Source: Escherichia coli (GTDB taxonomy: Bacteria > Pseudomonadota > Gammaproteobacteria > Enterobacterales > Enterobacteriaceae). Taken from it: a stretch of 64,000 nt of DNA. Shown here piece after piece: positions 9,754 to 29,332 of this stretch. The notes below the pieces were generated by a model. That model was not told the origin of the DNA and did no database searches. It worked only from the letters and a program-made list of their open reading frames with translations. The DNA lies in the NCBI RefSeq assembly GCF_001677475.2, contig NZ_CP015229.1; one strand, written 5' to 3'. The position numbers and the translations under genes were made by a program. The first letter of the stretch is position 1, and each line of letters opens with the position of its first letter.

Positions 9754-19883
<10,130 letters not shown>

Positions 19884-26403: not shown

Positions 26404-26481
26404 TGCGTATCTGCGCACGTCGAAGATGAAAAAGGCGTGCTACATTGACGACAGAATCCCTTTATGGAGTATCCACGCGTT

Positions 26482-27468
26482 ATGATACGTTTCGCTGTGA
26501 TTGGCACGAACTGGATCACTCGTCAGTTCGTCGAGGCCGCCCATGAGAGCGGTAAATACAAGTTAACCGCCGTTTATTCCCGCAGCCTTGAACAGGCTCA
26601 GCACTTCGCCAATGATTTTTCTGTCGAGCATCTGTTTACATCGCTGGAAGCGATGACGGAAAGCGATGCCATTGACGCGGTGTATATTGCCAGCCCGAAT
26701 GCCCTGCACTTTTCCCAGACACAACTTTTCCTTAGCCATAAAATTCATGTGATTTGCGAGAAGCCGCTGGCGTCGAATCTGGCGGAAGTGGATGCCGCCA
26801 TTGCCTGCGCACGAGAAAATCAGGTGGTGCTGTTTGAGGCATTTAAAACCGCCAGCCTGCCGAACTTTCATCTGTTACGCCAGGTGCTGCCGAAAGTCGG
26901 CAAATTGCGTAAAGTCTTTTTCAACTACTGCCAGTATTCCTCGCGGTATCAGCGTTATCTGGACGGCGAGAATCCCAACACCTTTAACCCGGCGTTCTCT
27001 AACGGTTCAATCATGGATATCGGCTTTTACTGCCTGGCGTCGGCGGTGGCGTTATTTGGTGAACCGAAAAGCGTGCAGGCAACCGCCAGTTTGCTGGCAA
27101 GCGGCGTGGATGCCCACGGCGTGGTAGTGATGGATTACGGTGATTTCAGCGTTACGTTGCAGCACTCAAAGGTCAGCGATTCTGTGCTGGCAAGCGAGAT
27201 TCAAGGCGAAGCGGGATCGCTGGTGATTGAAAAACTTTCTGAATGCCAGAAAGTCTGCTTTGTGCCACGCGGCAGCCAGATGCAGGATCTCACCCAACCG
27301 CAGCATATTAATACCATGCTCTACGAAGCAGAGCTGTTCGCTACCCTGGTGGATGAGCATCTGGTGGATCATCCAGGGCTGGCGGTCAGTCGCATCACCG
27401 CCAAACTGCTGACCGAGATTCGCCGCCAGACTGGGGTGATTTTTCCGGCAGATAGCGTAAAACTATAA
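26482..27468 (+). CDS. ygjR: Gfo/Idh/MocA-family oxidoreductase; start set at MIRFAVIGTNW
   Basis: Track ORF 26464..27468; Rossmann N-terminus. Confidence 0.8.
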   Translation: MIRFAVIGTNWITRQFVEAAHESGKYKLTAVYSRSLEQAQHFANDFSVEHLFTSLEAMTESDAIDAVYIASPNALHFSQTQLFLSHKIHVICEKPLASNLAEVDAAIACARENQVVLFEAFKTASLPNFHLLRQVLPKVGKLRKVFFNYCQYSSRYQRYLDGENPNTFNPAFSNGSIMDIGFYCLASAVALFGEPKSVQATASLLASGVDAHGVVVMDYGDFSVTLQHSKVSDSVLASEIQGEAGSLVIEKLSECQKVCFVPRGSQMQDLTQPQHINTMLYEAELFATLVDEHLVDHPGLAVSRITAKLLTEIRRQTGVIFPADSVKL

Positions 27469-27540
27469 TTGCCAAAGTAAAACAGTGTAAAAGGTATGTA
27501 ACAGACCATTGACTGGCTGAATGGTCTGTCATACTTTGTT

Positions 27541-27751
27541 ACCTGCAAAGGGGAGTAACTTCATTGCCGGTCGATCGTCATTACGATGTGTGAAAAACCA
27601 CATCCGGTCACCGGGCAACCCGAAAGGAATACGCAGACGTATTCCTTTTTTGTTGTAAGTGAGACCTTGCCGGAAGGCGAGGTCTATGCATAAAAAGCAG
27701 CGGCTGACGTCTTCCGACGTTGGCCGTTTTTTTTATGTGTAAGGAACTTCT
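27541..27751 (+). ncRNA. alx 5' leader: yybP-ykoY-type (Mn-responsive / pH-responsive element) riboswitch with internal terminator-like hairpins
   Basis: AAAGGGGAGTAAC at ~27548 and GTGAGACC at ~27659; hairpin GGAATACG...CGTATTCC + T-run at ~27625-27652; sits directly upstream of alx. Confidence 0.5.
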
Positions 27752-28717
27752 ATGAATACTGTCGGCACGCCGTTGCTATGGGGCGGATTCGCTGTTGTTG
27801 TCGCCATTATGCTGGCTATCGACCTGTTGTTGCAGGGGCGTCGTGGGGCACATGCCATGACCATGAAACAGGCTGCGGCCTGGTCGCTGGTCTGGGTGAC
27901 GCTGTCGTTACTGTTTAACGCCGCTTTCTGGTGGTATCTGGTGCAGACACAGGGGCGCGAAGTCGCTGACCCGCAGGCGCTGGCCTTCCTCACGGGTTAT
28001 CTGATTGAGAAATCGCTGGCGGTCGATAACGTCTTCGTCTGGTTAATGTTGTTCAGCTATTTCTCTGTTCCGGCGGCATTACAGCGCCGCGTGCTGGTGT
28101 ATGGCGTGCTCGGGGCGATTGTTCTGCGTACCGTCATGATCTTCACCGGTAGCTGGCTGATTTCGCAGTTCGACTGGATCCTGTATATCTTCGGTGCCTT
28201 CCTGCTGTTTACCGGCGTGAAAATGGCGCTGGCCCATGAAGATGAATCAGGCATTGGCGACAAGCCGCTGGTGCGTTGGCTGCGCGGTCATTTGCGCATG
28301 ACCGACACCATAGACAACGAGCATTTCTTTGTGCGTAAGAATGGCTTGCTGTATGCCACGCCGCTGATGCTGGTGCTGATTCTGGTGGAATTGAGCGACG
28401 TGATTTTCGCCGTGGATAGCATCCCGGCTATCTTCGCCGTGACCACTGACCCGTTCATTGTGCTGACCTCAAACCTGTTTGCGATCCTCGGCCTGCGTGC
28501 GATGTATTTCCTGCTGGCGGGCGTAGCAGAGCGTTTCTCGATGCTCAAATATGGCCTGGCGGTGATTCTGGTGTTTATCGGTATCAAGATGCTGATTGTC
28601 GACTTCTACCATATTCCGATCGCCGTTTCGCTGGGCGTGGTGTTTGGCATTCTGGTGATGACATTTATTATCAACGCCTGGGTGAATTATCGGCATGATA
28701 AGCAGCGGGGAGAATGA
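27752..28717 (+). CDS. alx: TerC-family inner-membrane protein Alx
   Basis: ORF in track; matches K-12 Alx (YgjT). Confidence 0.9.
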
Positions 28718-28825
28718 TTCGCTGTATATTAAGCCATTACTAGAGATAACTCATTCCAGACAAAGGTGAGCTATTAATTATGTAATCGGCTTATAGCTCT
28801 TTACAAAAAGACCGCACTGGTGTTG

Positions 28826-29040
28826 GTGGCGTCAAAATCGCCGAAGCGTTCCCTGGAGGCCGGGGCGACGCGCATGGATGCGCGGCGAGGGCGCATCTTA
28901 CAGGGACGTTCCCTTGCGCCCGACCCGGTAGCCGCAAGGGATAAGCTGAGGGAACCGCGCAGCGGCGATTTTGTTCGCCAGAGCCTGGGGGTGCAGGGGG
29001 CGGCGGCGATTGGCCGCCCCCTGCGCGCTCCCTGCGCCAG
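28826..29040. other. GC-rich structured intergenic element: ~30-bp imperfect inverted repeat flanking ~90 bp, then a perfect 11-bp-stem hairpin; unclassified
   Basis: GTCAAAATCGCCGAAGCGTTCCCTGG (28831-28856) pairs with GAGGGAACCGCGCAGCGGCGATTTTG (28947-28973); CAGGGGGCGGC...GCCGCCCCCTG at 28994-29023. Confidence 0.3.
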
Positions 29041-29332
29041 TGACTTTATATGGCATAGCACATTAAAGGAGCGCAACCGTTCTCATATTCCAAATAGTTT
29101 TGCCCATATGTTATCTAATCAGCCTTAGTAGCCAGTCCTTCCCTCTGTTTATGTCAAATAAATGTAACCATTAAGTTGCAAAATATGACCTCTCTTTAAA
29201 ATCCAGCATTTTTCGCTTCCCGAAGCTGTAACTTTCCTTATACTCGACCTTGCAAACACTTTGTTACATCCTGAAAGATGCGTCGACAGAACGCACCAGG
29301 GATGTGCGACAACACAATGAAAGGATCGAAAA

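Follow-up and report, generated by a model that had tools for sequence, protein, structure and literature searches.

The region between ygjR and alx in the 64,000-nucleotide stretch of DNA analyzed here (the window) is almost certainly the 5' leader of Escherichia coli alx (SraF/PRE), an atypical three-way-junction Mn2+ riboswitch of the yybP-ykoY family that switches on Alx translation. The assignment follows from sequence identity, the TerC gene context, a characteristic motif pair, the residue numbering, covariation, folding energetics and published experiments. The leader has reportedly been studied since 2001 as SraF and since 2009 as PRE, and it is said to have been recognized as a Mn2+ riboswitch since 2015. 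The element was first regarded as the sRNA SraF and afterwards as the pH-responsive element PRE, and it is now described as a Mn2+/pH-responsive riboswitch of the yybP-ykoY family with two intrinsic terminators (PMC9472077, PMC12153347, PMC12934788). For the alx aptamer there is a crystal structure, which PMC12934788 cites as PDB 9JGM. Detailed knowledge of the element already exists, and nothing reported here is biologically new. Its identity, anatomy and conservation, the covariation of the ON helix and of P3.1, P3.2, P6 and the base of P4, and the OFF fold as the energy minimum were computed in this work; the literature is the source for the binding of Mn2+, the dependence on pH, pausing, termination and translational output.

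The intergenic leader lies between ygjR (26464-27468), a GFO/IDH/MocA oxidoreductase gene, and alx (27752-28717), in the gene order ygjQ-ygjR-alx-sstT. The span singled out by the original prediction, 27541-27751, begins about 3 nt 5' of the literature transcript start at 27544 and ends one base before the alx ATG (27752). Compared with K-12 MG1655, the strain in which the alx riboswitch was characterized, the leader is identical at 290 of 292 nt. One of the two differences is C for A at 27598 (nt 55, P3.2 hairpin loop), the other is one extra U in the P6 U-tract (U8 versus U7), and both lie outside L1, L3, P1 and the ON helix. The leader is found with at least 95% identity in 5,419 of 5,426 complete E. 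coli genomes, always directly 5' of a gene annotated alx, and one E. coli chromosome carries a leader that is 100% identical. The product of alx is annotated in K-12 as "Mn(2+) exporter Alx", and no RNA feature is annotated at the leader in K-12 or in the RefSeq genomes inspected.

Inspection of the leader confirmed the yybP-ykoY-like signature blocks on which the original prediction was based, with GGGGAGTA at 27550-27557 and GTGAGACC at 27659-27666. The composite pattern GGGGAGTA-N(90-120)-GAGACC has a single match in the 64 kb window and none in 100 dinucleotide shuffles, so that the pair is unique in the window. Both of the terminator-like hairpins claimed earlier were recovered by a terminator scan of the + strand, each with its T-run. 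The first spans 27622-27649 (12 bp, loop of 4) with T6 at 27646-51, and the second spans 27699-27728 (13 bp, loop of 4) with T8 at 27727-34; the two observed hairpins compare with 0.5 +/- 0.8 in shuffles. The full leader (27544-27760) folds with -97.0 kcal/mol, corresponding to z = -9.0 versus shuffles. The anatomy of the leader, using the helix names of the aptamer, is as follows.

27509-27535, + strand: putative sigma-70 promoter of alx, with -35 TTGACT (27509-14) and TG-extended -10 TGtCATACT (27527-35), from sequence and conservation.
27544-27670, + strand: Mn2+ aptamer with a three-way junction, transcript nt 1-127, from residue mapping, the match to the alx-type model R1 (below) and covariation.
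27545-27551, + strand: 5' strand of the P1.1 switch helix, pairing with 27665-27670 in 6 pairs with A27549 bulged (switch-helix role, PMC12153347).
27552-27557, + strand: L1 5' strand GGAGUA, including A11, inside the GGGGAGUA box (27550-57); invariant in 73 of 73 leaders, with an identical box in mntP.
27558-27566, + strand: P1.2 5' strand (27558-61, 4 pairs with 27657-60) and the L2 loop (27562-66) that replaces P2 (L2 loop and pH role of A114, PMC12934788).
27567-27614, + strand: left leg, comprising P3.1 (27567-71/27610-14 and 27573-77/27605-09), L3 UCAUUAC (27578-84), which agrees with the published alx-like consensus UCAUUAC, and the P3.2 hairpin (27585-27604).
27615-27656, + strand: P4 helix with terminator B, hairpin 27622-27649 and U-tract 27646-51, from the terminator scan; its base CAAC/GUUG covaries.
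27657-27670, + strand: 3' strands of P1.2 (AAGU), L1 (GAGA) and P1.1 (CCUUGC) in the invariant block GUAAGUGAGACCUUGCCG, present in 73 of 73 leaders; GAGACC is also found in mntP.
27662-27685, + strand: P5 (hairpin C) of the OFF state, with a GGAA tetraloop, capturing the L1 and P1.1 3' strands in the minimum free energy (MFE) structure.
27671-27716, + strand: alternative ON helix (published as "C/D" or "P5/P6"), 27671-79 with 27708-16 in 9 pairs, excluding the P6 5' arm.
27699-27734, + strand: P6 (hairpin D), intrinsic terminator with stem 27699-27728 and U8 at 27727-34, from the terminator scan and covariation.
27741-27754, + strand: Shine-Dalgarno AAGGA (27741-45) and alx start codon (27752-54), placed in the MFE structure.
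27752-28717, + strand: alx, the regulated gene, an ORF of 321 aa encoding a TerC-family membrane protein (Mn2+ exporter; Pfam PF03741, E 1.4e-53).

In the older literature hairpin B is P4, C is P5, D is P6, S is P1, and C/D is the alternative ON helix. In 77 distinct upstream regions of orthologs, the putative promoter keeps a constant spacing to the aptamer, with the consensus caTTGac ... ctgtcaTAtTTT, and the start point agrees with the literature numbering in which nt 1 is 27544. A consensus promoter scan reported no promoter on the + strand; the spacer of the putative alx promoter is 15 nt. Only with transcript nt 1 at 27544 do the published features map correctly, namely eight residues and both termination sites. 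A11 is then 27554 in L1, C19 and G23 are 27562 and 27566 in the L2 capping loop, U35 and A37 are 27578 and 27580 in L3, A114 is 27657, A137 is 27680 and G173 is 27716. A37 is the Mn-coordinating adenosine of L3, and A137 is paired within P5, as published. Termination site B at about nt 108-110 falls at 27651-53, with about 46% termination in vitro (PMC9472077), and site D at about nt 190 falls at 27733, with about 13% in vitro; each site is located in the U-tract of its hairpin. The RNAP pauses at nt 142-144 correspond to 27685-87. The internal hairpin with a T-run that the original prediction had noted does exist, although it turned out to be the P4 helix of the aptamer (terminator B) and not the expression platform.

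The leader was compared across 80 alx orthologs with upstream DNA from Enterobacterales, ranging from Escherichia to Yersinia, Pantoea, Brenneria and Mixta. A TerC, MntP/UPF0016 or P-type ATPase gene downstream places such an element in a metal-homeostasis context, and the aptamer, with both boxes, was found 5' of the TerC-family gene alx in 78 of the 80 species; the exceptions are Atlantibacter (L026) and Rouxiella (L075), whose leaders carry no intact aptamer. In the 330 nt before the start codon, GGGGAGTA occurs in 73/80 and GAGACC in 77/80. The latter box lies at about -88 to -124 in 75 leaders and at -222 in two (L030, L040), and inserted repeats move GGGGAGTA farther upstream in four (L003, L013, L030, L039). 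An L3-like box follows GGGGAGTA by 26-28 nt, usually 27, in 73 of the 77 loci that have GGGGAGTA.

Pairing was counted in an alignment of 73 distinct leaders, in which the blocks GCAAAGGGGAGTAACTT, CGTCA..ACG and GTAAGTGAGACCTTGCCG, corresponding to L1, L3 and P1, are invariant. The helices of the aptamer together with the ON helix show 98.2% standard pairs, compared with 30-44% in slid controls, and both sides have changed in 17 of 39 pairs; none of 500 shuffles attains these values. Compensatory changes occur in 6 of 10 pairs of P3.1 (98.8% paired), in 5 of 6 pairs of P3.2 (92% paired) and in 3 of 4 pairs of the P4 base. The ON helix (27671-79/27708-16) is 99.4% paired with compensatory changes in 3 of 9 pairs, and as two of its covarying partners are in P6-loop columns, P6 cannot account for them. 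P6 itself is 95% paired with 4 compensatory pairs. P1.1 is invariant in the 73 leaders (99.8% paired) and P1.2 consists of 4 invariant pairs, so these helices, which are central to switching, yield no covariation evidence. Likewise, P5 is 92% paired, and as the invariant L1/P1.1 strand forms its 5' side, double changes are absent. The anti-Shine-Dalgarno pairing is kept in 73% of cases across the orthologs, in a stretch that is poorly alignable. A hairpin folds at the P4 position in 73/73 leaders with a size of 14-92 nt, and a T-run of at least 5 follows it in only 10/73, whereas the P6 U-tract has at least 6 U in 8 positions in 72/73. The published alx fold is thus supported by the comparative analysis. 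Together with the near-identity to the K-12 element, this bears out the original identification of the region as the metal- and pH-responsive alx leader.

Several leaders depart from the common arrangement. Natural loss of the aptamer was seen in Atlantibacter sp. RC6 (L026, 590-703), which has kept GGGGAGTCACTTCCTTGCCGGAAGGCGAGAC and deleted everything from L1 through the P1.1 3' strand, and in Rouxiella aceris (L075, 620-703), where only a P6-like terminator hairpin is left 5' of alx. In both, the P6 sequence persists without its pairing partner. Small inserted repeats interrupt helices of the riboswitch, with the blocks of L1, L3 and P1 left intact: at P4 in Siccibacter (L013), Enterobacter pulveris (L039) and Yersinia thracica (L080), in the P3.2 loop in L018, L030 and L063, and inside P6 in Erwinia persicina (L040). 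In Escherichia albertii (L003, about 400-600), the P4 hairpin is duplicated and flanks an insert of about 175 nt. These insertions resemble REP/BIME or ERIC elements and match naRNA4, ES036 and CssrA weakly. As the core blocks remain intact, P4 and the P3.2 loop tolerate large insertions.

A search with Infernal and the Rfam yybP-ykoY model had been proposed as the check on the original prediction, with the absence of a significant hit counting as refutation. RF00080 gave no match at the gathering score (45 bits, Rfam 15) in the whole 64 kb window, no match at E <= 10 with lax filters in 27400-27850, and no match at E <= 1 in 20 diverse orthologous alx leaders. No Rfam family at all reached its gathering score on either strand of the window, and in 27400-27850 nothing but chance matches below threshold turned up, among them STnc370, STnc240 and RydC, each with E > 0.3. 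Formally this is the refuting outcome, yet we judge the test to be invalid. The positive control, the E. coli K-12 mntP leader (L001, 2462-2558), scored 41.6 bits with RF00080, which is below the gathering score of 45. With a crystallized mntP element below the gathering score and 20 of 20 orthologous alx leaders missed, a lack of Rfam hits does not refute, and the failure to detect alx is a blind spot of the model. RF00080 ("Manganese", 177 positions), as printed, leaves the GGGGAGUAG strand unpaired, requires the P2 hairpin and ends after P4. The 3' strand of P1 is missing from it, so that the 3' GAGACC cannot add to the score. The miss is further explained by the alx aptamer itself, which has a three-way junction without P2, a different L3 and a long P4 bearing a terminator (PMC12153347).

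A covariance model (R1) was built from 50 alx-type aptamers. It matched the window with 118.5 bits as the sole match in 64 kb, a result that is circular because the window sequence is in the training set; independent support for alx-type membership comes from conservation and covariation in the other 72 leaders. At the mntP locus, R1 placed the true aptamer correctly (2463-2575) with only 4.6 bits, which is not significant (E was about 5 for 6 kb and 0.19 for 221 nt). Its alignment to mntP covers only the outer shell, namely GGGGAGUA, P1.2 in the same place, about 80 nt, and GAGACC. Therefore homology to the canonical Mn riboswitches is not demonstrable by a covariance model here. What supports membership in the family is the motifs of the L1/L3 metal site, the architecture with two legs, the gene context and the experiments in the literature, not the model scores. 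The L1 internal loop is present, with 5' GGGGAGUA and 3' GAGACC flanked by P1.1 and P1.2. The L3 bulge UCAUUAC (27578-84) lies between P3.1 and P3.2 and contains the conserved Mn-coordinating adenosine (A37, 27580). The P1.1 3' strand (27662-70) can pair either with 27545-51 or within P5 of the expression platform. The gathering score of RF00080 is not reached, and the four-way junction with a P2 hairpin is missing, as the 5 nt (27562-66) between P1.2 and P3.1 leave no room for it. Specialists keep alx in the yybP-ykoY family as an atypical three-way-junction member with an L2 capping loop. The fit to the orthologous-leader model, the L3 sequence UCAUUAC and the lack of P2 place the window element in the alx-type subgroup.

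The E. coli K-12 alx leader is the same element at the same ygjR-alx locus, with all published residues and termination sites mapping to the window. Among other Mn2+ riboswitches, mntP is a canonical four-way-junction member (RF00080) that shares with alx the identical L1 strands GGGGAGUA and GAGACC, about 80-110 nt apart, a P1.2 at the corresponding position built from other base pairs (ACUU/AAGU in alx and GCC/GGC in mntP), a bulged L3 that holds the conserved A between P3.1 and P3.2, and a downstream Mn exporter gene under translational control. They differ in that alx has no P2 but a 5-nt L2 capping loop at a three-way junction, in L3 (UCAUUAC in alx, ACAUACU in mntP), in the long P4 of alx that carries a terminator, and in the response to alkaline pH, which is found for alx and not for mntP. 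Neither covariance model detects the other type. While the Lactococcus lactis element is a transcriptional ON switch, the output of alx is mainly translational and its leader contains two internal terminators. The crystallized elements from L. lactis and Xanthomonas oryzae resemble alx in their two docking legs, the L1-L3 metal core and a switch helix P1.1 (PMC12153347, PMC12934788), but they form four-way junctions where alx has a three-way junction. A chimera of the L. lactis element with the alx L3 has also been crystallized (6CC1).

The MFE structure of the leader (-97.0 kcal/mol) is the OFF conformer, in which P5 and an extended P6 are formed and the L1 and P1.2 5' strands are paired to the Shine-Dalgarno and start region (27741-43 with 27559-61 and 27746-51 with 27551-56). 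Occlusion of the ribosome binding site by a disrupted P1.1/L1 has been published. If P1.1 and P1.2 are forced, the energy is -80.6 kcal/mol; with the ON helix forced as well, it is -72.4 kcal/mol. As the OFF fold is the thermodynamic minimum, the ON state must arise co-transcriptionally and be stabilized by the ligand. This fits the published observation that the RNA shows no activity after refolding, whether Mn is present or not, and that native RNAP and co-transcriptional folding are needed (PMC12153347). In the MFE structure around 27688-27740, the A-rich AUGCAUAAAAAG (27686-97) pairs with the P6 U-tract and the following AUGUGU and lengthens P6 to a hairpin of about 25 bp, which leaves the U-tract occupied in the OFF structure at equilibrium. 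A/U complementarity with the P6 U-tract is visible in many orthologs.

From these folds and the literature, the mechanism is best explained as follows. Transcription would start near 27544, and the left leg (P3.1-L3-P3.2) and P4 would fold first, with some polymerases terminating at the U-tract past P4 (site B). Once 27657-70 has been transcribed, the RNA would take one of two routes. In the ON route, Mn2+, to which the RNA would be sensitized by alkaline pH, would stabilize P1.1 and thereby prevent P5/P6 and the anti-Shine-Dalgarno fold, allowing alx translation; the freed 27671-79 would pair with 27708-16, blocking terminator P6 and leaving the Shine-Dalgarno single-stranded. In the OFF route, P5 would capture the L1/P1.1 3' strands, P6 would form, and the freed GGGAGU...CUU 5' strand would pair with the Shine-Dalgarno and start region. 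Alkaline pH would act via the aptamer itself (the L2 loop with A114 at 27657, plus L3) by raising its Mn2+ sensitivity, with no separate sensor. The published experiments underlying this scheme are that Mn2+ docks L1 onto L3 and stabilizes P1.1, with docking in the presence of Mn2+ seen by smFRET (PMC12153347, PMC12934788), that alkaline pH sensitizes the aptamer to Mn2+ through L2 loop/A114 and L3 (PMC12934788), and that induction, about 20-fold with Mn and about 70-fold at alkaline pH, is abolished by A37U (PMC12153347, PMC12934788).

Other explanations of the same region differ widely in how well they account for the data. That its resemblance to a riboswitch arose by chance, in ordinary intergenic sequence containing a gene terminator and a promoter, could be argued from the absence of an RF00080 match and of any annotation in RefSeq and K-12. 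We give this practically no weight: it is already refuted by the fold energy (z = -9.0), the motif pair absent from 100 shuffles, the invariant blocks and compensatory changes across 73 species, and the near-identity to an experimentally characterized element. The original PRE model describes a ligand-free kinetic pH riboregulator, in which alkaline pH lengthens RNAP pauses and thereby alone redirects folding to the translatable conformer. Pauses have indeed been mapped at nt 142-144 and 177/183/184, and the gap of 16-25 kcal/mol by which the OFF fold is favored over the ON folds makes kinetic control necessary. However, alkaline pH does not prolong RNAP pausing but shortens the pauses or leaves them unchanged (PMC9472077), the A37U substitution in the Mn site abolishes the Mn and pH responses alike (PMC12153347), and the invariant L1/L3 metal-site blocks are left without explanation. 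As the sole mechanism this model is largely refuted already, and we consider it very improbable. The detection of the element as the sRNA SraF, the strong conserved terminator 5' of the ribosome binding site and the P6-like hairpin that persists in the two aptamer-less species (L026, L075) would all suit an independent trans-acting sRNA of about 190 nt ending at P6, with the regulation of alx incidental. This reading is improbable, since the leader structure is coupled to the alx ribosome binding site via the anti-Shine-Dalgarno pairing and the ON helix, the aptamer always occupies a fixed position 5' of alx orthologs, and no trans target is reported in the cited alx-leader literature.

More credible, if still on the unlikely side, is transcription attenuation as the main output, in which Mn2+ controls readthrough of P6 (perhaps also P4), the alternative helix serves as antiterminator and translation is secondary. 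Because the covarying ON helix precludes formation of the 5' arm of P6, there may be an attenuation component. The covariation of 27671-79/27708-16 is independent of P6, the P6 terminator with its U-tract is kept in 72/73 leaders, and termination in vitro was seen at both sites. Against a leading role, site D shows only modest termination in vitro that hardly changes with pH (about 13% versus 10%), the P4 T-run is found in only 10/73 orthologs, and the large published effects were obtained with translational fusions, alx being classed by the authors as a translational riboswitch (PMC12153347). The published data indicate that any attenuation component is minor, and we retain the Mn2+ riboswitch acting mainly on translation as the preferred reading.

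The alx leader is a real non-coding signal that can be recognized from sequence alone, and its value here is methodological. Its proposed use as a positive control for reading non-coding signals is sound, provided that Rfam is not the test. Absence of an Rfam hit is an unsafe ground for refutation and would have given a false negative here. Pipelines that use Rfam as a negative filter would wrongly discard the alx leader, and a gathering-threshold RF00080 scan would leave both E. coli Mn riboswitches, alx and mntP, unannotated. As RF00080 misses alx and the alx-type model misses mntP, the P2-less alx-type aptamer might effectively be a separate family invisible to current models, and other three-way-junction sensors of Mn2+ (or Mn2+/pH) outside alx and Enterobacterales could go unannotated. 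Separately, the P4 terminator could be a lineage-specific checkpoint that releases an RNA of about 108 nt with its own function. Both ideas are speculative and rather unlikely.

Two neighboring elements were also observed. Upstream, the inverted repeat ACAGACCATT ... AATGGTCTGT at 27501-27529 flanks the -35 TTGAC of the alx promoter. Its changes among the orthologs are partly compensatory, with 70.7% paired versus 32-41% when slid, and at the pair 27505/27525, for example, 17 sequences have GC and 12 have AT. Judged from these sequences, the repeat is more suggestive of an RNA hairpin than of a protein operator, and the hairpin could be a ygjR terminator that overlaps with the alx promoter. 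The P4 and P6 hairpins were considered for the role of ygjR terminator and rejected, as both are part of the alx transcript and stop transcription from the alx promoter in vitro; the separate upstream hairpin at 27501-29 is the better candidate. Downstream, the alx-sstT spacer (28718-29332) is 615 nt here versus 398 nt in K-12, and its variable part is entirely different. It contains a GC-rich element of about 230 nt (28815-29045) that folds with -139.3 kcal/mol (z -5.6) and has a weak match to Rfam TwoAYGGAY (33.1 bits versus a gathering score of 43, E 0.0023), with CAUGGAUG as its first loop. This element is multi-copy in E. coli, occurring unannotated at 16,026 places in 5,425 of 5,426 genomes with a median of 3 per genome. 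At the same alx-sstT site, K-12 carries a different repeat of the CCCTCTCCC/GGGAGAGGG type.
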